This document shows positions 15,079 to 45,341 of a DNA stretch of 45,341 bases, one piece after another. Position 1 is the stretch's first letter. The number at the start of each line of letters is the position of its first letter. The position numbers and the translations under genes are program-made. Source of the stretch: a virus; the IMG/VR virus record IMGVR_UViG_3300045988_049297, one strand, 5' to 3'. A model generated the notes under the pieces. The model was not told the DNA's origin and made no database searches. It saw only the letters and a program-made list of their open reading frames with translations.

Positions 15079-16743
15079 ATGCGCCAGAAGTTTAAGATCG
15101 ACCTCTCTATGCTGACCCCGGAAGAACAGCAGCAGTTTCGTGATGACCCTACCACCCTGACCAAAGGTGAAGTTGATGTCGCTTTGTACCTTCGGTTCAG
15201 TTCGGAACGGCAGAAAGAACAGTCCATTGAGGGGCAGCTTCGAGACTGTATTGCGTACTGTAAGCGCAAGAGCTTCCGCATTGTCGCCATTTATGTTGAC
15301 CGTGCTACTACTGCTCGGAAAGATGTAGAGAAGCGAGTCCATTTTCAGGAGATGATTTCCGACAGCGCTCATCATCTCTGGAACTTCGTGGTCGTGTGGA
15401 AGCTCGACCGCTTTGCCAGAAATAGAGAAGACAGCGCCGTGTTCAAAATGCGGCTGCGGAAGAATGGAGTTCGGGTCAAATCCGCAACCGAAACAATCTC
15501 TGATAACCCCGAAGGTATCATCTTAGAGTCTGTACTCGAAGGTATTGCCGAATACTATTCGGCAGACCTCAGCCAGAAAATCACTCGCGGATTGAGAGAG
15601 TCAGCCATGAAGGGTCATTCCGTTGGTGGCCATGTCCCGTTGGGCTACAAAATCGAAGATCATAGACTTGTAATAAATCCGGCAACCGCCCATATCGTAC
15701 AAGAAGCATTTCAACTCTACGCCAATGGCGAGAGCATGGCTGAGATTTGCCGTATCTTCAACGGCAAGGGCTACCGTACCGCCAAAAACTCGGAGTTTAA
15801 CCGAAGCAGTTTTAAATCCATGTTTAAAAATGTGCGGTATATCGGGACATACATCTACAAAGACATAAAGAAAGAAAACGCCATCCCAGCCATCATCGAC
15901 AAAGACCTCTTTGAAACGGTGCAACGGCGGCTTTCTTTGGCTGCTGACGCGCCCGCAAGGGGTAAAGCCAAGGTGGATTACCTCCTATCTGGAAAGCTGT
16001 TCTGCGGGCATTGCGGGGCTACTATGAACGGGGAAAGCGGTACGAGTAAAACCGGAGCTATCCACAACTACTACACCTGCTATTCACGGAAACGGCGAAA
16101 GGGCTGTGATAAGAAGCCATTAAAGAAAGATTTCATTGAACGCATTGTCGCACAGGACGCTATGGCGCTGCTTACCAACGATGTGATTGAGGAACTGGCC
16201 GACATGGCTATGTCGCAGGCGGACAGGGACTTGAAAGAAAACACCCGCATTCCTGAACTATCTACCAGACTCACCGAGATTGAACAAGGTATCAACAACA
16301 TCACTAAGGCCGTTGAAAAAGGAATTGCGTCTGACGCTCTCCTGGATCGCCTGACTGAGTTGGAGAAGGAAAAGAAAGACCTGACCTCTCAGCTTCGGGA
16401 AGAAGAAAAATACATCTACCGAATTGACAGAGATCAGGTGGTATTCTGGCTGACGAAGTTCCAAGGAGGCGATATAGAAGACGAGGATTGCAGGCGGCGC
16501 ATCATCGACCTTCTGGTAAATTCCGTGACGGTATGGGACGAACCTGACGGATATAAAATTACCACCGCATACAACCTCACTTCCTGCAAAACAAAGACTT
16601 TCCGGGTCAGCAACAACGCTGACTCTCCTTCCGGGGAAGGGTTCGGATTTGGGGAGCTATCGTCCACCATTGGACGCATATCCGAACCCTACATTGTGTG
16701 GGGAACGGTATTCGTCCAAACCAAAAGACACTCCTTGTCTTAA
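15079..16743 (+). CDS. int: Large serine recombinase (integrase)
   Basis: Resolvase catalytic domain (VALYLRFSSERQ), recombinase domain, Zn-ribbon CGHCG..YYTCYSRKRRKGC, coiled-coil (LTEIEQGINNITKAVEKG..LTELEKEKKDL). 554 aa. Confidence 0.9.
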   Translation: MRQKFKIDLSMLTPEEQQQFRDDPTTLTKGEVDVALYLRFSSERQKEQSIEGQLRDCIAYCKRKSFRIVAIYVDRATTARKDVEKRVHFQEMISDSAHHLWNFVVVWKLDRFARNREDSAVFKMRLRKNGVRVKSATETISDNPEGIILESVLEGIAEYYSADLSQKITRGLRESAMKGHSVGGHVPLGYKIEDHRLVINPATAHIVQEAFQLYANGESMAEICRIFNGKGYRTAKNSEFNRSSFKSMFKNVRYIGTYIYKDIKKENAIPAIIDKDLFETVQRRLSLAADAPARGKAKVDYLLSGKLFCGHCGATMNGESGTSKTGAIHNYYTCYSRKRRKGCDKKPLKKDFIERIVAQDAMALLTNDVIEELADMAMSQADRDLKENTRIPELSTRLTEIEQGINNITKAVEKGIASDALLDRLTELEKEKKDLTSQLREEEKYIYRIDRDQVVFWLTKFQGGDIEDEDCRRRIIDLLVNSVTVWDEPDGYKITTAYNLTSCKTKTFRVSNNADSPSGEGFGFGELSSTIGRISEPYIVWGTVFVQTKRHSLS

Positions 16744-34801: not shown

Positions 34802-36454
34802 TCAAATAGGCCGTTTGAAAACCTCCACCTTGCCCCCGGACAGCATACGGATTTCGTTCTCCAACAGGGAGAGGGAATCGGGGGCGTCATCGTGCGGAAC
34901 CTTACCGGAGCGGGTGTATGTGGTCACTTCCTTCATGAAGTTCCAATACTGACTGCCCCGCTTGTAGGTAGAAGGGTGCTTGAAGTAGAAATTCTTCTTG
35001 ATGTTGTCGGAAGCGAACTCGATACGAGTCTGCTTATTAGAGATCGTGCGCTTCGTGCGGATACCCACGGAGTACCCACGCTCACGAATGATCTGGTCAA
35101 CATCTCTGGCATAATACTGCCCGGCATTATTGGACTCAAAAACAGCAGAAGCAACTCTATTTTCAATCAGGCACTTGGCGCATTCCGGCTTCGTCACCTC
35201 AGCGGGGGAGTCATCAAAGACCACATCAACGATATACACATCGCTGCCGTAAATCTTCGCCACCGGCATGGAGGTCGAGTCTGAGCCGCTTTCCGCCGTA
35301 TCGCCAACGGCGATGATGGTATCCGGGTCACGGTCTTTCGGTAGCTCGAAAAAATAGTTCAGCTCTTCCTTGTTGAACAACAGACCCTTCGCCTCAAAGG
35401 GTTGCTGCTGGAACTCGCTTTCAAACTGCTCTGCGCTCAGAAGCTCCCGCTGCTCCCGAAAATAGGCGGTGGTAAAGACCTTCTTGCCCTCCCGCTCGTA
35501 TTCATAATTGCTCTCGTCCGTCACGAGATCGAGGGCGGGTATCTCAATCGCTCTCCAAGCCCAGCCCTCCCGCTGTGCGTGTTCCTGCACACGACCGATG
35601 GGGTCATACAGGGAATAGCGAGTGCCGGTAAAGACCATCGGCGTACCTTCAATGGCACGACCCATAATATCGCCAGAGATCACTTCCCACTTGTCATCAA
35701 GCCGCTGGCGGTTCTTCGCTTCCTCACGACCCTCTACACAGTCATCGAGGTAGAGGACATTGGTGGCTTCGGACAAGCCCACCTGTCGAGCGTCAATGGA
35801 ACGACACATGATGGTGGGGAAACGGGACTTGTTTTTCAGGTTCACCGTCTTCGTGTCGGCGTTGGTCTGTACCAGCCGTGCGTCCGGGAACACATCGTAG
35901 AACAGATATTCATTTGGAACGGTCAGGTATTCCAGACAGCCGTTGTAGAAGCTCTTTACAAGGTCATCGCCTGTCCCTTCCATCAGGGTCGAGCGGTCAG
36001 GGAACTTCCCAGAGAGCATATTCACAAAATTGATGCCTGTTTGTGACTTACCCGCTCGCTTTGGCATGGAGATCGTCAAAAGACGCAGCTTCCCGTCCAG
36101 AACATCTTGAAACCCTTGCACCATCGGTCTGAGATAGTGCTTGCGGGGCGCATAAAACCGCTTTTCCGGCTTGCGGTCGAGTTCGATATAGGTCATGAAG
36201 GAGTCAAAATCATGGGGTGCTTCAAAGAGAAGACACCGCCGCCACTGTTCATAGAACTTCGCCCCGCCGCCACGGACTACCTGATCTGCGGAAAGCGCCA
36301 GCAGCTCCTTGTTCACCTTATGTGCCGCCGAGAAATCTTCGGTTTCCCACTCCCGGCACAGAGAAAAGAGGTCGCTGTACGCTCCGTTATCTCCCGGTCT
36401 GCGGTCGATCACGGCTCGGATAGAGCCGGAGAGTTTTTCATAATTCATGTGCAT
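34802..36454 (-). CDS. terL: Terminase large subunit
   Basis: 550 aa. Walker A-like MPKRAGKS, Walker B-like VLYLDD, C-terminal nuclease-type acidic motifs (IIAVGDTAESG, HDDAPDSL). Upstream of the portal gene. Confidence 0.9.
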   Translation of the reverse strand: MHMNYEKLSGSIRAVIDRRPGDNGAYSDLFSLCREWETEDFSAAHKVNKELLALSADQVVRGGGAKFYEQWRRCLLFEAPHDFDSFMTYIELDRKPEKRFYAPRKHYLRPMVQGFQDVLDGKLRLLTISMPKRAGKSQTGINFVNMLSGKFPDRSTLMEGTGDDLVKSFYNGCLEYLTVPNEYLFYDVFPDARLVQTNADTKTVNLKNKSRFPTIMCRSIDARQVGLSEATNVLYLDDCVEGREEAKNRQRLDDKWEVISGDIMGRAIEGTPMVFTGTRYSLYDPIGRVQEHAQREGWAWRAIEIPALDLVTDESNYEYEREGKKVFTTAYFREQRELLSAEQFESEFQQQPFEAKGLLFNKEELNYFFELPKDRDPDTIIAVGDTAESGSDSTSMPVAKIYGSDVYIVDVVFDDSPAEVTKPECAKCLIENRVASAVFESNNAGQYYARDVDQIIRERGYSVGIRTKRTISNKQTRIEFASDNIKKNFYFKHPSTYKRGSQYWNFMKEVTTYTRSGKVPHDDAPDSLSLLENEIRMLSGGKVEVFKRPI

Positions 36455-36540: not shown

Positions 36541-36630
36541 TTATAAAATTTTGGGAATGATAAACGCCAACACCAAAAGGATGAATATCACTTCAATCAC
36601 AAAACCAATAAACTTGAAAAAATATTTCAT
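36541..36630 (-). CDS. 29-aa hydrophobic peptide (candidate small membrane protein)
   Basis: Not in the ORF track. ATGA overlap with the upstream stop. Hand translation: MKYFFKFIGFVIEVIFILLVLAFIIPKIL. Followed by the 36465..36505 terminator. Confidence 0.35.
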   Translation of the reverse strand: MKYFFKFIGFVIEVIFILLVLAFIIPKIL

Positions 36631-37103
36631 TGGGCTATCATCTCACAATCTGACCACGATCCTGCGCTAAGACATTCCCCAATAAAGGTAATCGTGTCTC
36701 CGACTTTTACGGTTTTGAGATTATCTTCTTGGTCTTTCTCGAACTCAGCATAGAAAACAACAATAGTGTTATCAACTTTAGTTTCAAGAGTTAGGGTTGC
36801 TCCACCAGTAAGATTAAATAGGCCGTCGTTCGTCATCCCATCGATCTTAGCCGTGATTTGATAACGATTATGCTTATACATATCATCTGCCACCAGCTCG
36901 TTATCTTTATAGGCTCTATAAATCTCATCGAAGGTGGCCGTACCCACTTCGTTCATTAGAAGCTCTGGTGTAGGAGTAACTTCGATCTTGGAATCTCCAT
37001 TTTCCGTTAAGCTATCGTCTTGCCCGAAGATGGCAATTATCGAACTAATTGCGATAATAATTACGACAATCCAAAGCCAACGCTTTTTCTTCTTTGTCTT
37101 CAT
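36627..37103 (-). CDS. Membrane-anchored OB-fold (tRNA_anti-like-type) protein; candidate exclusion/moron protein
   Basis: N-terminal Lys-rich segment plus TM (WLWIVVIIIAISSIIAIF). C-terminal FDEIYRAYKDNELVADDMYKHNRYQITAKIDG..VGDTITFIGEC resembles the OB-fold family of membrane lipoproteins. The gene is visibly AT-rich. Confidence 0.55.
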   Translation of the reverse strand: MKTKKKKRWLWIVVIIIAISSIIAIFGQDDSLTENGDSKIEVTPTPELLMNEVGTATFDEIYRAYKDNELVADDMYKHNRYQITAKIDGMTNDGLFNLTGGATLTLETKVDNTIVVFYAEFEKDQEDNLKTVKVGDTITFIGECLSAGSWSDCEMIAQ

Positions 37104-37873
37104 TCATCACCAGCTCCCTTCAAAATCGGCTCGTGAACGCCCTTGACCCAATTCATATTCCCGTATTTATACATACCCTCGTACAGAGGACGGTTGCCGA
37201 GAATACTTTTGATGGTGGACACCTGAAACCGCTTGCCAGAACGGGTCTGGTATCCCGCCTTTTCCAGCAGCTCCGTGATACCCAGCATGGAAACGCCGTC
37301 CTCGTGCTTCTCGAAGATGAACTTCACGATAGGAGCTTCCTGCTCGTCAATAGTGAGAACACCATCAACTACCTTGTAGCCGTAAGGACGGCGACCACCG
37401 CTGTATCCACCGCAGGAAGCCTTGATGGAACGACCCTTGCCGGTTCGCAGAGCGATGTTCTTTCTCTCCTGCTCTGCCACGAATTGAAGCAGCGCACGGT
37501 AGATGTTGGCGAACTCGCTGCCCTCTGTGAAGCTCTCCTGCGTACTCAGAAGTTTGATGTTCTTCTTTTCCAGCACATACAGGTAGTAAAAGTACAGCTT
37601 GGTATCACGAGCCACACGATCATTCTTGAATACGATCACCGCTTCATAGGGAGGGTTGCTTACATCATCGCCGTATAGAATGGAGTTCAGGCCGGGACGG
37701 TCATCTTTCGTACCGCTGATTTCATCAATCTTCCAGTCTACGATGTTATAGCCGTTGTCGTTGGCGTAAAGAAGAATAGCCTGCTTCTGAACCTCGATAC
37801 CGTATTTGTCATCATCGGCCTGCCGTTCGGTGGAGACTCGGATATAGCCGATTGCATTTTTGAATGTCATCAT
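37100..37873 (-). CDS. Truncated serine recombinase (catalytic + recombinase domains; no Zn-ribbon or coiled-coil)
   Basis: AIGYIRVSTERQ (catalytic Ser), ..VIVFKNDRVARD.., GGRRPYGYKV. Ends ..VKGVHEPILKGAGDE, where large serine recombinases normally continue into the Zn-ribbon. ATG 37873 follows the promoter at 37893..37921. Confidence 0.75.
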   Translation of the reverse strand: MMTFKNAIGYIRVSTERQADDDKYGIEVQKQAILLYANDNGYNIVDWKIDEISGTKDDRPGLNSILYGDDVSNPPYEAVIVFKNDRVARDTKLYFYYLYVLEKKNIKLLSTQESFTEGSEFANIYRALLQFVAEQERKNIALRTGKGRSIKASCGGYSGGRRPYGYKVVDGVLTIDEQEAPIVKFIFEKHEDGVSMLGITELLEKAGYQTRSGKRFQVSTIKSILGNRPLYEGMYKYGNMNWVKGVHEPILKGAGDE

Positions 37874-37892
37874 AAGATCACCCCTTGCGTAT

Positions 37893-37921
37893 AAGATAGC
37901 ATAGGTAAATGTAATTGTCAA
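37893..37921 (-). promoter_or_regulatory. Island promoter 1: TTGACA-17-TATCTT
   Basis: Minus strand: TTGACA (37921..37916), spacer ATTACATTTACCTATGC, TATCTT (37898..37893). The -35 is flanked by direct TTACCTAT repeats (plus-strand ataggtaa at 37901..37908 and 37921..37928). Shares ATGCTATCTT with promoter 39508..39536. Confidence 0.5.
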
Positions 37922-38049
37922 TAGGTAAGTGTAAATAAGCCTTTTTATTTTTTGCGGGTATTTTTCAGCTCACCCCGCCCTCGCCGCCGCTGGCATATCC
38001 CCCGGCCCCATCACCCATTCACGCCGCCCCGATCGGGCCGGAAAAGCGC

Positions 38050-38082
38050 AAAAAATAACCGCCCCGGTGCTATCCGGGGCGG
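38050..38082 (-). terminator. Rho-independent terminator after the four-gene cassette
   Basis: Minus strand: CCGCCCCGG-ATAGCA-CCGGGGCGG, then TTATTTTTT (stems at 38074..38082 and 38059..38067). Confidence 0.75.
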
Positions 38083-38159
38083 CGTTCACTTATTCAGTTT
38101 TAGTATGTCAATCAAAATTTGCACCGGCAGGAAAAGCAGCAGAAGAATAATATACAATC

Positions 38160-38483
38160 TTATCCAACCTCCACAATTTTCAAAACATGATAGCGCCCTA
38201 ACACGGTATAAATAGCTGACTTATTCGGCGCGTATAGCTCCATAATTCCATAGTAGCGAGTTTTCACCCAATACACCCGGCAAAACTCACGCAAGGAAAA
38301 CGCCCACCCGCCAATTTTAACAACAGGAGTTTGCAACGTTTTTATTGTTGCGAATTGCCTATAATATTCCTTTATGGCGTTTTTATCGCCGTTTTCGTAT
38401 GCCGCAATGGCTACAGCAACGCGGGATTTTAACGCGCTTTCAATCGGCACGGGCTCCCAATTCACAAATCGCCAATAATTCAT
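38160..38483 (-). CDS. Hypothetical protein (107 aa), island cassette gene 4
   Basis: Compact operon arrangement. AT-richer than the phage backbone. No family recognised. Confidence 0.55.
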   Translation of the reverse strand: MNYWRFVNWEPVPIESALKSRVAVAIAAYENGDKNAIKEYYRQFATIKTLQTPVVKIGGWAFSLREFCRVYWVKTRYYGIMELYAPNKSAIYTVLGRYHVLKIVEVG

Positions 38484-38485
38484 AA

Positions 38486-38743
38486 TTAAACCCCCATTCT
38501 AATACATTCATCAAGCGGGATTTTGTACCCGTCAACCCTAAAAAATGCGCTGTCTTTATCGTTTGCGGGGTAATAGATTTTACACCGATGAAAACGCCGA
38601 GCGGCTTTCCCGCCGTACCAACAACCCGAAACACAATAAACAAAATCATTTACACCGCATTCAATGCCCTTTATTTCAAGCCCATTCAAGCCGCTGTAAT
38701 AGGCGATACTTTCCCGGCTTTCGCAATACTCGCGTTTATTCAT
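38486..38743 (-). CDS. Hypothetical Cys-containing protein (85 aa), island cassette gene 3
   Basis: Overlaps the upstream gene by 8 nt. No family recognised. Confidence 0.55.
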   Translation of the reverse strand: MNKREYCESRESIAYYSGLNGLEIKGIECGVNDFVYCVSGCWYGGKAARRFHRCKIYYPANDKDSAFFRVDGYKIPLDECIRMGV

Positions 38744-39080
38744 GGCGTGTTACCTCATCAATAAATGCCCTTGCAAGCTGTTTAAGCTGTTCCCGCTGTT
38801 CCTTCCACGCAAGCGAATAATTATAGCGGATTTTTTCCGCGTCCGTTTCGTACCGTTCCCGCAATTCATAGGACGGGCGAATATTTCCGAATGGGGCATA
38901 TCCGGTCACAATGGCAACCCCGCCGCCCATATCGTAAATATCAGCCGCCCACCCCTCGCGGCGTACCGTGTACGCAACCGGGCTTTCATAATTCAAAAGG
39001 TTTTGCAATCCGCAATAGGGCACGCAAATAATATCATTGTAATTCGCCCGGATTGCCTTTTGTGTTGTCTTGAATTTCAT
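38736..39080 (-). CDS. Hypothetical protein (114 aa), island cassette gene 2
   Basis: VPYCGLQNLLNYESPVAYT..GWAADIY..VTGYAPFGN resembles a family I recall from Firmicutes plasmids, ICEs and phages with unknown function. This is unverified. Confidence 0.55.
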   Translation of the reverse strand: MKFKTTQKAIRANYNDIICVPYCGLQNLLNYESPVAYTVRREGWAADIYDMGGGVAIVTGYAPFGNIRPSYELRERYETDAEKIRYNYSLAWKEQREQLKQLARAFIDEVTRHE

Positions 39081-39094
39081 TTAACACACCCCTT

Positions 39095-39454
39095 TCAATA
39101 ATTCATGTTGCTAGCTGCACGGCGGTTATACATGGCTCTTAAACTTTCGGCGGGGGTCATATCCGCCGCCATACTGTAACGGGGCGTTTCTTCCACCGAA
39201 AGCGCGTCCCACCATGCTTTCCCACCACCATTTATATTATAGAATGAAAGAAAGCTATTTACATGGCGCATTGTAGTAACAGAATAACCGCCCCACATAC
39301 GAACGAACCGCCCCGCCGCCGTGATACGGCAAACAAAAGTATTATAGGACTGTAAAACTTTTTCGCCGTTTTCCGTTTCAATGATTTTCGCCTTTCCGTA
39401 AAAACTCTTTGCCCGATCAGAACCGCAAACGGGTAAATCAAAAATTTTTTTCAT
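39095..39454 (-). CDS. Hypothetical protein (119 aa), island cassette gene 1
   Basis: AAAGGGG RBS 9 nt before ATG 39454. KAKIIETENGEKVLQSYNTFV..YSVTTMRHVNSF pattern recalled from mobile-element proteins. This is unverified. Confidence 0.55.
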   Translation of the reverse strand: MKKIFDLPVCGSDRAKSFYGKAKIIETENGEKVLQSYNTFVCRITAAGRFVRMWGGYSVTTMRHVNSFLSFYNINGGGKAWWDALSVEETPRYSMAADMTPAESLRAMYNRRAASNMNY

Positions 39455-39507
39455 GATATAAGCCCCTTTCAAAATTCAATTTGCATTTACTGCCTTTCGG
39501 TAAATAC

Positions 39508-39536
39508 AAGATAGCATATTTGTATTTACCTGTCAA
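39508..39536 (-). promoter_or_regulatory. Island promoter 2: TTGACA-17-TATCTT with a 10-bp inverted repeat around the -10
   Basis: Minus strand: TTGACA (39536..39531), spacer GGTAAATACAAATATGC, TATCTT (39513..39508). GGTAAATACA and TGTATTTACC (39499..39508 and 39521..39530) bracket the -10. Confidence 0.55.
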
Positions 39537-39722
39537 GTGTAAACGCAAAAGAAAATCAAGATTTTTTGTAAATGGGGGCGCTATACATTATAAAGGGCAA
39601 AAACGCGGCCCCGATCAGGCCGGGCACCGACAGCGCCCACGCGGCCCCGGTAGAACCCGCCGCCGATCAGCCGGGGAAAGGAAAAGCCGCCGACCTCGTG
39701 GGGAGATCGGCAGCTCTGTCAA

Positions 39723-39857
39723 AGTCGCTGACCCTCGCCGGAAAGTCGTAAAGTCGTTCGGGCGAAAGTCGCAAAAGTCGTGGAAAAGTCGTAAAGTCGC
39801 TCGGCATAGTCGTAAGCTATAGTCGCAAAAGTCGCTCAATCCTCCGAGTCATAGTCG
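39723..39857 (-). repeat. Array of 11 same-orientation heptamers A(A/T)AGTCG(C/T) (minus strand CGACT(T/A)T) at the 3' end of terS
   Basis: AGTCG cores at 39723, 39744, 39752, 39767, 39776, 39787, 39795, 39808, 39821, 39830 and 39853 (spacing 8-23 nt). Two more at 40406 and 40425 flank the terS start. One inverted copy at 40080..40086. Confidence 0.9.
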
Positions 39858-40405
39858 CCGGATGCACCAACCACATCTTCGAGATACTTCTTCTCCAAGT
39901 CCTCAGCGGGAACCTGATCTCCGAGCTGCTGGTTGGGTGTCAACACGACCTCCTGCTTGTCCGCATAGCCCATGTTGTTCTTCATCAGGAAGATACCGGC
40001 GACCGGATTGATCTTCCCGTTCTGCATATAGTTTTCCATCTGAGCGTTCAAAAAATAATACGCCTTTTTTAGTGTGGTACGACTTTCGGTGGGGATATAG
40101 GCGCTATCCACACCATTACACCAACACCACAGAGTTTTTCTATCAACCCCGAACGCCAATGCCATACCAGCAACAGAGGGTTTCATATCATCTTCGGCAC
40201 AAATCCGAAAGTAATTCCCAATACGCTCAGTCACAGCTTCCGGTTTGGTCATATCCACAGCAGGCCAGTCCCACATTTTCAGATCGTGTTCAATAAACTT
40301 CCGATTATCTCCCGGTTGAAGCTGTGCGGTACTATCGGGCCGCTTATTACCGCCAGTACCTTTCGGTCTGCCACGACCGCGCTTTTCCACAATTTCATCT
40401 GCCAT
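39836..40405 (-). CDS. terS: Terminase small subunit (gp3 DNA-packaging-protein type)
   Basis: N-terminal GRGRPKGTGG, HTH-like PSVAGMALAFGVDRKTLWCW, ..KINPVAGIFLMKNNMGYADKQEV.. This matches the gp3-type small terminase pattern as I recall it. Acidic C-terminus. Confidence 0.7.
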   Translation of the reverse strand: MADEIVEKRGRGRPKGTGGNKRPDSTAQLQPGDNRKFIEHDLKMWDWPAVDMTKPEAVTERIGNYFRICAEDDMKPSVAGMALAFGVDRKTLWCWCNGVDSAYIPTESRTTLKKAYYFLNAQMENYMQNGKINPVAGIFLMKNNMGYADKQEVVLTPNQQLGDQVPAEDLEKKYLEDVVGASGDYDSED

Positions 40406-40432
40406 AGTCGTTTTCTCCTTTCAAAGTCGCCA

Positions 40433-40541
40433 AGGTGATAAAGGTGAGTAATCGGGTGCATTTCCCTATAACTATTTCTATATACGCGCGTATAAGAGAG
40501 AGTTATAGGCATTTATGCCCGATTACTCACCTAACTCACCT
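40433..40541. repeat. Nested palindromic element, copy B
   Basis: Same 24-nt left arm as copy A (40433..40456). Inner dyad at 40465..40509 around TATACGCGCGTATA (40481..40494). Right arm CCCGATTACTCACCT + AACTCACCT (40518..40541). About 92 of ~111 hand-aligned columns match copy A in direct orientation. Confidence 0.9.
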
Positions 40542-40557
40542 AAAATACGAAAAACAA

Positions 40558-40584
40558 TTTTTCAAAACGCGCCAATTTGAAAAA
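40558..40584. repeat. AT-rich dyad TTTTTCAAA-N9-TTTGAAAAA
   Basis: Arms at 40558..40566 and 40576..40584, within a very AT-rich ~60-bp stretch between two sets of TCACCT iterons. Confidence 0.8.
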
Positions 40585-40600
40585 AGTCTTTGCAAAAACA

Positions 40601-40625
40601 CTCACCTTTATCACCTTTATCACCT
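40601..40625. repeat. Three tandem 9-bp iterons (TCACCTTTA x2 + TCACCT)
   Basis: TCACCT at 40602, 40611 and 40620, with exact 9-bp phasing. Overlaps the stop codon of the XRE-family gene. Confidence 0.9.
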
Positions 40626-40845
40626 AACGGCGGCGTCCGATATATTCATCAATGCTAATCCGCAATGCGTCCGCAAGCAGCTCGATAGTATCAATTCGCC
40701 CATTTCGCGCTGTGCCACGTTCCAGTGCGTAGATCGTGGTTGCGGGCACACCTGAAATCCGCGACAGTTGTGTTGCTGACATCTTAGCCCTATTACGTGC
40801 TTTACGCATACTCTCGCCCTTTGTCATTACCATTTTGTGCTTCAC
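40624..40845 (-). CDS. XRE-family HTH transcriptional regulator
   Basis: MSATQLSRISGVPATTIYALERG is a canonical Cro/CI-type HTH. The start is uncertain (GTG 40845, or ATG 40809 giving MRKARNRAKMSATQ..). Confidence 0.8.
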   Translation of the reverse strand: MKHKMVMTKGESMRKARNRAKMSATQLSRISGVPATTIYALERGTARNGRIDTIELLADALRISIDEYIGRRR

Positions 40846-41147
40846 CCTTTCGGAACAAGATGAATATCTTTGTCTACACGTTTTCTTGTGTCGGCATCAT
40901 CCAGCTTGCAATCTCCCATGATTTCATGCACGGCATCATGCAGAACGGACAGTCTTCGTGCATCTTCTTCGACGGAAATAGACTTGATGTATTCAACAAT
41001 CAGCTTCGCGTCATTAAGTGTCCAATGCGGGATTCGTCCATTGCCAAACAGCCGCCTCCCAATGGCATTAACCGTTGCCGGTGAAAGCCCAAGCTCGTAA
41101 GCGATTTCTGCGTTTGTATAAATAACTTCACCTTTTGCGTTAATCAT
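40842..41147 (-). CDS. HTH DNA-binding protein (candidate late-gene or switch regulator)
   Basis: N-terminal HTH-like TNAEIAYELGLSPATVNAIGRRL. 101 aa. Preceded by a 220-nt intergenic region. Confidence 0.55.
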   Translation of the reverse strand: MINAKGEVIYTNAEIAYELGLSPATVNAIGRRLFGNGRIPHWTLNDAKLIVEYIKSISVEEDARRLSVLHDAVHEIMGDCKLDDADTRKRVDKDIHLVPKG

Positions 41148-41367
41148 TTTCTTTCCTTTCTCCGTGCTTCATCAGCGTTCTTCATGTAGATAACCATCGC
41201 ACATCGCAAAATTCTTTATATATTGGCTTTTCTCGCCAATAATACATCTCGAAGCTGACTTGCTTGACAAACTACACACACGATGCCAACCGTTTTCGGA
41301 CAGGATGGCGCGTGCGTTAATACAAGTATCACAAAGCATTATTTTCGCACCCCCGCCCGCGTCTCAG

Positions 41368-41814
41368 TCAGCACCCCCCCGCATCTTTCGGCTTAAAAAT
41401 CACGACCATGTTCGGGAACGGCGCGCTGTTTTTGCTGCCGCCGAATTTCAGTCGCCCACGCACGAACCGTGTCTCGACGTTCGGCTGCTTATAGATATAC
41501 GTGTGGAACCATCGCGTGTCCGTCCGCGCGGGCAGCAGCATGACGATGGTGTTGTTATTCACGGCGTTCTCGTAGCTGGCCTTTTGCACCCACTTGTCGA
41601 TCTTCCGACCGTATGGTGGGTTGCACCACACCGCGCCCGTCCAGGGCTGTTTCAGTCCATCCTGCTCTCGCGTATAGTAACGGGGGCATTTGTGGTTTTG
41701 TGCGTCTGCGGCGGCATCCAGCGTAAAGCCGAATTCCGCGTCAAGCATGTCAAAAAAGTCCTGTGGGGTCTCCCACAAATCAGTTTTGCTGGAAAACAAA
41801 ACGTCTTTATTCAT
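41368..41814 (-). CDS. Phage-type DNA N6-adenine methyltransferase (Dam-like)
   Basis: LWETPQDFFDMLDAEFGFTLDAAA and the catalytic NPPYG (VWCNPPYGRKI) are typical of the phage Dam family. ATG 41814 is preferred. Confidence 0.85.
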   Translation of the reverse strand: MNKDVLFSSKTDLWETPQDFFDMLDAEFGFTLDAAADAQNHKCPRYYTREQDGLKQPWTGAVWCNPPYGRKIDKWVQKASYENAVNNNTIVMLLPARTDTRWFHTYIYKQPNVETRFVRGRLKFGGSKNSAPFPNMVVIFKPKDAGGC

Positions 41815-43316: not shown

Positions 43317-43492
43317 TACGAACGCTCCTTCACAATGCGGATTTTTCTCAGGCGCTTGCCGCACCGCTTACAGACTTCATAATTGCTCTGCCAACGATGA
43401 GAACCATTACGGTACTTGACCTGAATGTGAACATACGGGTCTACCGAGTGAATACCGAAGCGGCAGAGGATAGAGTTACATGAACGGTTCAT
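43316..43492 (-). CDS. Small Zn-finger-like protein (58 aa)
   Basis: MNRSCNSILCRFGIH..CKRCG. TAATG overlap with the helicase stop. Confidence 0.45.
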   Translation of the reverse strand: MNRSCNSILCRFGIHSVDPYVHIQVKYRNGSHRWQSNYEVCKRCGKRLRKIRIVKERS

Positions 43493-45000
43493 TAGGACGC
43501 TCCTTTCAGTCTGAGGTTCTTGTAGACGGGGTAGCCCTGATACACGACCTTGCCGCCGTGCCACTCAGGGTGCGTTTCCATGTCGGCATTGAACCGCTTG
43601 GCAGAACAGGCAAAGTACCCGTTGGACTTGCACCAAATCTTGTATGCGTCAAACAGAGACTTCGAGCGGGTGTTGACCCCCTCAGCTTGCTCACAGCGTT
43701 CTTCGAGGAACTGCAAGCACAGATCGTTGTCACGCTCGTACTGGTTGACTACCTTCCGCATGGCGGGGGACATTTTCAGACCGAACCGCTTGTACTTGAA
43801 GTATCCGGCGACCAGCCAAGCGAAAATGCCCTGCATAGCTTCCTGTGTCTGGAACTCATTTTTCAGGTTCTTGTCCTGCTCCGCTTCGGTGAAGTGGCGG
43901 TTAAACTCAATGACCCGTACACGGTCGGAAGCGAACAGGGACTTATCGCTGACGGTGGGAAGATCGTTACAGGAAAGCCAAAGGGTGAACTGCGGCAGGA
44001 AGGTCGTGGCAGTCTCATAGAGGTTCCGAGCCTTGATTTCCTCGCCGCCTGTGAGCTGCTTGATCGTTTCCTCGTCCAGCTTGCCATACTGGTTGCTCTC
44101 TGCCATCGTGACGAACCGCTTGCCTTTCAGGGAAGCCAGCATGGGGTTCGCTGCTTCGGCGTTCTTCGACCGTTCTGCCTTGCAGATGATTGACACGGGG
44201 GACACGGACGCATAGTCACCGAGAAGGTGGTGAATTGCCGAGAGCATGGTGGACTTACCGTTGCGAGTGGTCTTGCCGTGGAGAATGAACATACATTCCT
44301 CGTTCGCCATACCCAGCATGGAGTACCCCAGCGCCTTTTGAAGATAATCAGCCTTGTCTTCGTCATTACAAGTGACTTCCGCAACAAACTTCTCCCAGCG
44401 GCGGCACCGTGCGTCCTGCAAGGTGTAGTTGAAGTTGGTCTGCATAGTCAGGAAGTCTTTCCAATCATGTTCCCGGAACTCCATTTTTTCGAGGTCGAAA
44501 GTGCCGTTCTTGCAGTTGATAAGGTAGGGGTTTGCGTCAAACTCCGCCGAAGCGATAGGAAGCACACTGGCAGCGTCCTTCATCAGCCGATCACGGAAGC
44601 GCCGGTCGCCCATCTTCACGATGAACTTCATGTACTCGGAACGCCGTTCTTCGTTGGCAATCTCACCGCAGTAGAGAGCCATCAGGCGGCAGAACTCTTT
44701 GATCTTTTCCGCTACCAGCAGAGAACCCGTGTCCTTGCGCCATGCGCCCTCGGAGTAGGTGAACCAGCTTTTCGCTTCGGGGCAGTAGCGGGTATCATTC
44801 TTGTAGCACTCGGAGAACAGCTCCGCCATGCCGGACTCGTCCCACGAATACCCCGTGCCGCTGATCGGGTGGCTATGCTCAGGCTGTGCTTCCTTAATCT
44901 GAAACATCACTCTGGACTGAGCTTCGTCCATGATGTAGCGACCGTTGGAGAGCTGAAAAAGAGCCTGTTCTTCGGGGGCGGTCATAATTTCATCAGCCAT
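43492..45000 (-). CDS. D5_N / P4-family SF3 replicative helicase (primase C-terminal-type)
   Basis: D5_N-like ANPYLINCKNGTFDL, Walker A HGKTTRNGKST, Walker B-like RFVTMAES, SCNDLP. C-terminal winged-helix-like KSLFDAYKIWCKSNGY. AAGAGG RBS before ATG 45000. Confidence 0.85.
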   Translation of the reverse strand: MADEIMTAPEEQALFQLSNGRYIMDEAQSRVMFQIKEAQPEHSHPISGTGYSWDESGMAELFSECYKNDTRYCPEAKSWFTYSEGAWRKDTGSLLVAEKIKEFCRLMALYCGEIANEERRSEYMKFIVKMGDRRFRDRLMKDAASVLPIASAEFDANPYLINCKNGTFDLEKMEFREHDWKDFLTMQTNFNYTLQDARCRRWEKFVAEVTCNDEDKADYLQKALGYSMLGMANEECMFILHGKTTRNGKSTMLSAIHHLLGDYASVSPVSIICKAERSKNAEAANPMLASLKGKRFVTMAESNQYGKLDEETIKQLTGGEEIKARNLYETATTFLPQFTLWLSCNDLPTVSDKSLFASDRVRVIEFNRHFTEAEQDKNLKNEFQTQEAMQGIFAWLVAGYFKYKRFGLKMSPAMRKVVNQYERDNDLCLQFLEERCEQAEGVNTRSKSLFDAYKIWCKSNGYFACSAKRFNADMETHPEWHGGKVVYQGYPVYKNLRLKGAS

Positions 45001-45328
45001 TTTTAACACCTCTTTTCATCTTTGGCGGCTTCGGTAAAGGTGTCCAAGCTAAGACCTTTACTTTCTGCCCTTGTGCCACCTCACCACCCCAATTTCCGTT
45101 GAACTGGTATCCGATACCGAAGGCCTGATACATTTGGTTATACTCTCCGAAACGGAAATACTCGTACCAGCAAAGTACATTTTCGCCATTCGGAGGTAAT
45201 GCTTCATTTGCCAAAGTCCAAGTTACAGGAATGGTTTCCACGATAGGTATTTTTTTTATAGCGAGAAATGCCGTAGGAATATCTCGGACAGCATTTAAGG
45301 CGGTAGTTAGATTGATATATCGACCCAT
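44993..45328 (-). CDS. DUF551-like protein (111 aa)
   Basis: W-x-x-x-x-E-x-LPP-x-G-x-x-VL pattern (WTLANEALPPNGENVLCWY) as in DUF551 phage proteins. Its start lies inside the terminal repeat. Confidence 0.5.
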   Translation of the reverse strand: MGRYINLTTALNAVRDIPTAFLAIKKIPIVETIPVTWTLANEALPPNGENVLCWYEYFRFGEYNQMYQAFGIGYQFNGNWGGEVAQGQKVKVLAWTPLPKPPKMKRGVKNG

Positions 45329-45341
45329 ATATTCTTACTTC
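45249..45341. repeat. Terminal direct repeat, copy 2
   Basis: Identical to 1..93. Confidence 0.95.

Follow-up and report, generated by a model that had tools for sequence, protein, structure and literature searches.

A conserved, unidirectional heptamer array after the small-terminase gene of Oscillospiraceae phages, a candidate packaging recognition site

The window analysed here is the whole of a 45,341-nucleotide stretch of viral DNA (IMG/VR record IMGVR_UViG_3300045988_049297), and because an exact 93-nt direct repeat joins its two ends (1-93 = 45249-45341), it is a complete genome of about 45.2 kb that was assembled as a circle. The minus strand carries nearly all of the genes. The phage is temperate and belongs to the Oscillospiraceae host group; the same integrase is found in a 45,327-bp JGI contig, and related prophages reside in Oscillospiraceae genomes, such as that of Dysosmobacter segnis and MAGs of Faecousia and Ruminococcus. 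Besides the genes listed below, the genome encodes Erf and YqaJ recombination proteins, a C5 methylase and a Dam-family methylase. The gap between terS and terL is a 3.4-kb cargo island that holds small ORFs, a 273-aa serine-recombinase-like protein and a Sie-like protein, and relatives have the same layout. The features of the locus and its surroundings are as follows.

15079-16743: large serine integrase, next to a LexA-like repressor
34802-36454: TerL (phrog_38, E 2.8e-45)
36627-39600: hypervariable cargo (moron) island, between the terS array and terL
37100-37921, minus strand: 273-aa serine-recombinase-like protein with Resolvase and Recombinase domains and no zinc ribbon, just upstream of terL
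39508-39536, minus strand: sigma-70-like cargo promoter (TTGACA-17-TATCTT), overlapped by a palindromic operator (GGTAAATACAA/TTGTATTTACC)
39581..39596, minus strand: conserved box CCTTTATAATGTATAG, the junction beyond which relatives diverge completely into different cargo genes
39596..39622, minus strand: terminator T2, second of a tandem pair, within a GC-rich stretch
39675..39716, minus strand: terminator T1, a GC-rich hairpin of about 15 bp plus a U-run, 6 nt past the last heptamer
39721..39858, minus strand: array of 11 heptamers, all in one direction, that read RCGACTWT on the sense strand of terS; kept in relatives
39836..40405, minus strand: terS, small terminase of 189 aa, P22 gp3 (PF16677) family by profile match
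40079..40086, plus strand: single inverted heptamer inside terS, present in only about 9 of 80 relatives
40112-40183, minus strand: HTH of TerS (residues ~75-98)
40358-40384, minus strand: AT-hook-like KRGRGRPKG in the disordered N-terminal arm of TerS (residues 8-16)
40404..40430, minus strand: two further heptamers, flanking the Shine-Dalgarno sequence GGCGACTTTGAAAGGAGAAAACGACTATG of the first gene of the unit
40432-40625: second repeat system, between an HTH_3 gene and terS, flanking a 47-nt imperfect palindrome with a TATA-rich centre
43492-45009: D5-like primase-helicase

The assignment of terS comes from the PF16677 GP3_package profile (E 1.9e-10; 41.3 bits against a curated cut-off of 29.4) and from matches to phrog_606 and phrog_309, both annotated as 'terminase small subunit'. 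The AF2 model of the protein is confident for residues 31-130, where it has two helices (33-45 and 55-71), then an HTH (78-84 and 89-96) and a long helix (106-128), while the first 29 residues (with KRGRGRPKG) and the acidic C-terminus are disordered. A PDB sequence search with the TerS profile gave no significant match, and the best Foldseek matches of the model, the P22 gp3 nonamer 3P9A and 2AO9, were weak (E ~0.5-1, TM 0.37-0.50). The KRGRGRPKG AT-hook is deleted in some relatives that still carry the array, and related motifs, G(K/R)PRGG or RGRP, are seen again in array-bearing TerS proteins that are very divergent.

An earlier note on this DNA had described eleven copies of AWAGTCGY around the terS stop, two more at the start of the gene and a single inverted copy within it, and every one of these is present. 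The eleven copies lie on the plus strand within 39721-39858, at 39721, 39742, 39750, 39765, 39774, 39785, 39793, 39806, 39819, 39828 and 39851, with successive spacings of 21, 8, 15, 9, 11, 8, 13, 13, 9 and 23; in the direction of terS, the core 7-base word is CGACT(T/A)T. Ten copies are 3' of the terS stop and one is in the last terS codons: the copy at 39828-39835 abuts the stop codon at 39836-39838 (TGA|GCGACTTT), and that at 39851-39858 is read as the G-D-Y codons of terS. The pair at the start of the gene, also on the plus strand, occupies 40404-40411, overlapping the ATG at 40403-40405, and 40423-40430; the inverted copy is at 40079-40086. The claim that the clustering is strongly non-random holds, with 17 occurrences of AWAGTCGY in 45,341 bases against 5.5 +/- 2.2 in shuffled sequence and none of 100 shuffles reaching 17. 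Only three copies occur elsewhere in the genome besides the array, the terS-start pair and the inverted copy. The background rate assumed in the note for the 5-mer core needs correction, as the rest of the genome has only about half as many AGTCG as a Markov model predicts, which makes the cluster still more striking. CGACT is only about 2-fold depleted genome-wide and the full heptamer is without clear depletion; the avoidance of GGWCC and CCWGG is far larger. The Arg/Lys-rich ORF at 39481-39822(+) does arise merely from the repeats, as suggested before.

The pair of copies at the start of terS stands on either side of the Shine-Dalgarno sequence. In relatives with a small extra ORF before terS, the same leader, heptamers included, serves that ORF, so these copies are part of the transcription unit's leader and are not a feature of terS itself. 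In relatives with other versions of the upstream region, the leader copies are absent or only the ATG copy is found, and the downstream array is still present. The inverted copy inside terS is probably a chance occurrence. It consists of GAAAGTCGT in E-S-R codons and, in a by-eye alignment, its position in the protein roughly corresponds to that of the P22 pac sequence GAAGTCGTT in E-V-V codons; the match in placement is probably a coincidence, because the copy is not conserved in relatives. On the other side of the array, the stem of terminator T1 shows compensatory changes among relatives.

The array was followed through a close set of 80 IMG/VR loci plus one GenBank fragment, with TerS 69-97% identical to that of the window. 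It stands right after the terS stop in about 75 of the 80 close relatives, with 5-14 copies in 41 distinct architectures, and it stays with terS while the genes upstream and downstream vary. Copy number shifts by whole units between near-identical phages. The spacers differ (GGCTG, CCA, GCCGA and others) and the word is kept: in a column test unconditioned on motif matches, the non-consensus rate is 3.2% in heptamer columns and 6.7% in spacers. (A first test of heptamer versus spacer variability was conditioned on motif matches and was discarded.) A Rayleigh scan of the copy positions peaks at 10.5-11 bp, with a mean R of 0.50-0.56 against 0.39-0.42 for permuted spacings, the z-scores being inflated because the architectures share ancestry. 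In four relatives (L013, L036, L079 and L086), a 197-aa HNH homing endonuclease gene of the NUMOD4 type is inserted exactly after the terS stop, and a fifth (L083) has a degenerate remnant. This insertion at the start of the array spans three different TerS sub-clades, and its bearers keep about five sparser heptamers, several of which fall within the 3' end of the inserted HNH gene. At a greater distance, the cultured Clostridium phage Maintenon (TerS 27% and TerL 37% identical) lacks the CGACTWT array and has two copies of another 14-mer after terS.

A search of Rfam with 38500-41500 returned two sub-threshold chance matches only, and a description of the array was found neither in Rfam nor in the literature searched. 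The array is thus a real and conserved element, apparently new to the literature, whose binding partner we infer.

IMG/VR was also scanned with a pattern of three spaced copies of the word, which extended the survey well beyond these relatives. Among the matches listed, arrays adjoin TerS-like genes that are only 29-59% identical to the window TerS. Of the listed loci, 44 have a TerS-like gene in range, and in every one of them the array follows this gene, downstream and co-oriented. The distance from array to TerS-like gene is -94 to +590 nt in most of the listed loci. A group of 55-60 kb phages (L262, L286, L288, L295, L298, L301, L333 and L334) has its array, 6-12 copies of ACGACTATT over about 400 bp, 5.9-7.4 kb from the TerS-like gene, at the end of the replication operon. 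The order there is a 250-aa TerS-like protein with an N-terminal AT-hook, an O-like initiator, DnaB, phrog_1709, the array, GC-rich hairpins and a moron island. Position-weight matrices from three sets carry information only in R-CGACTWT-S, with spacers unrelated between groups. The 175 distinct arrays have a median span of 113 bp and a mean of about 14.5 bp per copy, and spacings cluster at 7-9, 11, 13, 15, 21 and 23 bp; the commonest copy number is five, which is the detection minimum, and a second peak lies at 9-12. Three pattern matches were rejected as chance: L265 and L296 are unrelated coding or AT-rich tandem repeats, and L284 consists of ACCGACTTT repeats inside a replisome-organiser gene.

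Two aspects of the wider survey bear on the level at which the word acts. The copy at the 3' end of terS is read in different frames by lineage, as GGC GAC TAT (G-D-Y) or as GCG ACT ATC (A-T-I), and conservation of the word across reading frames implies that selection acts on nucleic acid. In addition, the arrays of L279/L294, L258/L311 and L287 lie beyond a terminator, 180-370 nt from the stop codon, which makes an obligatory role in the 3'-UTR unlikely and favours DNA over RNA.

If the HTH of TerS reads the heptamer, then the two should change together, and the earlier note had proposed to look for such co-variation. It is not seen: the word is invariant across entirely different HTH sequences. 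Three comparisons were made, with the two types (B1 and B2) of a sister clade, with chimeric TerS proteins and with far relatives, and all were negative. The far array-bearing TerS proteins have unrelated HTH sequences (RKTLWCW, RRRLWEI, NRQWLYAV, ISTVKDWEYG and TQTVLDWQKG). The sister TerS clade is about 55% identical and branches inside the array-bearing diversity, and its loci are free of CGACTWT clusters over +/-10 kb. Its type B1 (L104-L121 and L184-L201) instead has 2-6 copies of a 17-bp tandem repeat, AAAAATTTGACCGAAGC, starting 3-4 nt after the terS stop, the last unit of which overlaps or supplies the 5' arm of the terminator hairpin. Type B2 has one to three copies of GCACAAAGGC after the stop; this was rejected as a true array, being the end of a convergent 260-aa gene, and the B1 word was not found within +/-10 kb in B2 phages. 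No TerS residue separates B1 from B2 phages, so that TerS proteins without a distinguishing residue occur with the 17-bp repeat or with none, and B2 is also found with a completely different N-terminal two-thirds of TerS. Among the chimeras, L090 and L099 have the recognition helix of the sister clade, yet CGACTWT arrays, and L095 and L127 have a window-like helix, yet the B1-type word. Considering both the TerS proteins of the sister clade and these swaps, the type of repeat is not tied to the HTH of TerS. In L095, L127 and L128, copies of AAATTTGACC at irregular spacings were also noticed, and the 17-bp repeat and AAATTTGACC may form a second class of word with the same placement. A pan-gene association of repeat type with flanking genes (+/-10 kb) was confounded by phylogeny and was set aside.

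How, then, should the array be interpreted? The constancy of the word, the co-orientation, the placement at the 3' end of terS and the helical phasing together argue for a dsDNA site of a directional process linked to the terminase. The relatives of TerL include phages of groups known as headful packagers, and a pac site near terS is therefore to be expected. Packaging recognition was the leading proposal of the earlier note. Linkage to terS, co-orientation in 44 of 44 loci and the phasing speak for it, and the failed HTH co-variation and the array-less sister clade speak against it. We give a probability of roughly 0.4 to the reading that the array is a cis-acting, double-stranded, multi-site docking region, that is, a pac recognition site, for a ring of TerS; we infer both that TerS is the binder and that packaging would start here. 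Confidence is held down by the failed co-variation, the array-less sister clade and the distant array of the 55-60 kb group. The irregular spacing of 7-23 bp is ill-suited to a symmetric ring, and the roughly five sparse copies left after the HNH insertion also count against packaging recognition. Contig ends were tried as a proxy for physical ends and discarded: 3 of about 20 truncated contigs end in the array/terminator region, a weak and unconvincing enrichment.

In the packaging model, TerS made from the adjacent gene would assemble as a ring of about 8-12 subunits, several of which would engage successive CGACTWT words on roughly one helix face, at about two words per ~22 bp. Either the array of about 110-130 bp would be wrapped round the ring, or a sliding ring would be arrested repeatedly by the words. 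The complex would then recruit TerL, leading to a cut nearby and to one-directional headful packaging, presumably towards terL at lower coordinates; the two leader copies around the ribosome-binding site might allow feedback by TerS on its own operon. The phasing of 10.5-11 bp is that expected of one-face binding on B-DNA, and the copy numbers of 9-12, the 113-bp span and the ~14.5 bp per copy are compatible with a ring of 8-12 subunits. TerS rings are known with 8-12 subunits and a circumference of about 300 A (PMC4737164, PMC11331095). Since the word is constant while the HTH helix changes, a conserved part of TerS other than that helix would have to provide the recognition. Terminal arms are one example, as in HK97, where the structure of the TerS-DNA complex shows N- and C-terminal segments of adjacent protomers reading the DNA while the ring slides (PMC11331095). 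A more specific and more tentative proposal, possible though somewhat doubtful, is that the heptamer track is a landing strip with about one word per subunit for a pac-type TerS ring, read by conserved terminal arms instead of the HTH helix and common to a very broad TerS superfamily of gut Clostridia phages.

Several characterized packaging sites resemble the array in part. The pac region of SPP1/SF6 (pacL boxes a and b, pacC, and pacR box c, bound by G1P) likewise has short direct repeats around or within the start of the terS region, and an HTH-bearing TerS ring is proposed to wrap about 100 bp of bendable DNA there before headful packaging (PMC4737164). The SPP1 boxes, however, are few and lie at the 5' end of the gene, compared to 9-14 identical heptamers at the 3' end here; SPP1 TerS belongs to Terminase_2 and not to PF16677, and binding by the SPP1/SF6 protein proved weak and non-specific. 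The pac site of P1 contains seven TGATCA/G hexamers in 162 bp. It is thus similar in having many copies of a very short word within about 150 bp beside packaging genes, but its hexamers form two clusters that flank the cut and act as Dam-methylation switches, whereas the array here is one unidirectional cluster of a word without GATC, and the PacA/PacB terminase of P1 is unrelated to that of the window. A search for GATC clustering in the GC-rich stretch, with a P1-like Dam switch in mind, turned up nothing exceptional. In lambda cosB (R3, R2 and R1; gpNu1 and IHF), repeated TerS sites beside the terminase genes position TerL, but there are three 16-bp sites in mixed orientation and packaging is of the cos type; lambda TerS binding is strong and saturable, whereas the pac-type TerS proteins studied so far show weak, non-specific DNA binding (2022 review, PMC9611059).

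P22 gp3 shares the protein family, PF16677, and its 22-bp pac site inside gene 3, AGAGAAGATTTATCTGAAGTCG, ends in GAAGTCG and so matches 6 of the 7 bases of AAAGTCG (PMC9611059). The P22 site is a single, asymmetric, intragenic one with the word on the coding strand, whereas in the window the copies are many and follow the gene, and its coding strand carries the complement of the word; because it is a single copy on the opposite strand relative to the gene, the resemblance is a lead only and may be due to chance. The HK97 complex is instructive in that its ring reads DNA through the terminal segments and not a classical HTH, sliding while it monitors sequence (PMC11331095). HK97 is nevertheless a cos phage with one specific site and no repeat array. 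Outside packaging, the heptads of the omega repressor (pSM19035), the tetramer boxes of ParG and the centromere iterons of ParR are sets of 7-11 short direct repeats bound cooperatively by small oligomers. The binders there are plasmid-encoded ribbon-helix-helix partition or repressor proteins, and no ParA/ParR-type gene was present among the window genes scanned. The array differs from the SPP1, P1 and lambda sites in copy number, in being strictly unidirectional, in lying 3' of terS and in keeping one word throughout a TerS superfamily.

Might some molecule other than TerS read the array? One unlikely though reasonable answer is that the heptamers bind another phage or host protein for regulation or insulation, for instance as a roadblock or boundary between the early/replication operon, of which terS is the last gene, and the variable moron island plus late genes. 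Such a protein would explain why the type of array goes with the downstream module instead of with the DNA-binding domain of TerS, why in both genome contexts a co-directional operon ends in the array and a moron island comes next, and why the ribosome-binding site of the unit's first gene lies between two copies. However, a search for a protein family common to all array-bearing groups produced none but the TerS-like family as a candidate binder (a 117-aa coiled-coil family occurs in only 8 of 14 groups), in a comparison that is partly circular because most groups were defined through a TerS match, and the orientation relative to the TerS-like gene is constant in 44 of 44 of the loci listed. 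It is quite improbable, in our view, that the element acts as RNA, with CGACUWU in the terS mRNA bound by an oligomeric protein by the logic of TRAP or HutP and controlling termination, mRNA stability or translation. Every copy is on the sense strand, in the window the array separates the stop codon from the tandem terminators, the Shine-Dalgarno sequence has a leader copy on either side, the last 17-nt repeat of the sister clade overlaps the 5' arm of a terminator, and variable spacings, 7 nt included, would suit a single-stranded ligand. Nevertheless, the arrays of the L279, L294, L258, L311 and L287 lineages lie 180-370 nt past the stop and on the far side of a terminator, a phasing of 10.5-11 bp is meaningless for RNA, and the fold of the array RNA is not unusual (z = -1.4). 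TRAP/HutP arrays, moreover, are NAG triplets with fixed spacers of 2-4 nt as opposed to a heptamer at spacings of 7-23 nt, no TRAP- or HutP-like protein was seen among the annotated neighbours, and the Rfam search gave no match above threshold.

The directionality of the array also recalls Chi, and its word might be an oriented signal for a host nuclease of the AddAB/RecBCD type, placed beside the pac cut so as to protect the unpackaged end of the concatemer. Chi sites are typically 7 nt long, the array is strictly unidirectional with its orientation tied to the packaging module, and the word is independent of TerS sequence. We nonetheless regard this as very unlikely: the rest of the phage genome shows no enrichment of the word (5 observed against ~11 expected), the phage has its own Erf/YqaJ recombination system, and the array-bearing phages range from AT-rich to GC-rich (by reading the sequence), suggesting hosts too diverse for one Chi. 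An iteron-type replication origin bound by a phage initiator, an alternative raised in the earlier note, is unsupported and highly improbable. There are direct repeats with a super-period of ~22 bp followed by a GC-rich and then an AT-rich stretch, and the array of the 55-60 kb group comes about 1.4 kb after the genes for an O-like initiator and DnaB. The same word, however, accompanies unrelated replication modules and so is not specific to an initiator, with a D5-like primase-helicase here and O-like plus DnaB elsewhere, and the two terminators T1 and T2 account for the GC-rich stretch; the AT-rich stretch (39460-39600) lies beyond the array with both terminators in between, and contains a promoter. 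A better candidate origin appears to be the iteron-plus-palindrome element at 40432-40625, where three copies of GGTGATAAA and one of GGTGAGTTAGGTGA are direct and one of TCACCTTTATCACC is inverted. It occurs in three versions in relatives, which track the identity of the D5-like primase-helicase (100% vs 83-88%), and it looks like a SaPI/P4-type origin, with two iteron sets around an AT-rich core; the P4 iteron word TGTTCACC was not found in the literature searched. The array may also be a titration site for a regulator. Finally, the changes of copy number by whole units between near-identical phages would be natural for a functionless, microsatellite-like expansion seeded by the 3' end of terS, but the word is kept down to ~30% TerS identity, amid unrelated spacers and in different reading frames, and this possibility is disfavoured as scarcely credible.

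Known pac sites consist of one site or a handful of weak boxes, mostly with non-specific TerS binding in vitro, and reviews still call unresolved how pac-type TerS finds viral DNA (PMC9611059, PMC11331095). A conserved, directional, multi-copy word beside terS in hundreds of uncultured gut phages would offer a concrete DNA substrate, with a testable prediction on copies versus subunits, and at least one cultured lysogen exists, Dysosmobacter segnis BX15, with its prophage (L085) on contig NZ_JACOQI010000020.1. If the landing-strip proposal is true, this would be the first natural pac site to show the number of engaged subunits, and a substrate for deciding between wrapping and sliding models. 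Should TerS not be the binder, the array would still be a widespread, unannotated cis-signal at the boundary between the early operon and the hypervariable moron island in phages of Oscillospiraceae.

Two further observations concern the genome at large. Identity of the 273-aa recombinase-like protein just upstream of terL reaches 98-100% among relatives with TerS identity of only ~75%, and distant clades have this protein too, at 47-73% identity. Furthermore, GGWCC and CCWGG are strongly avoided in the whole window (0 vs ~84 expected per word for the former, 3 vs ~60 expected for the latter), which points to host restriction pressure of the AvaII/Sau96I type plus the EcoRII type.
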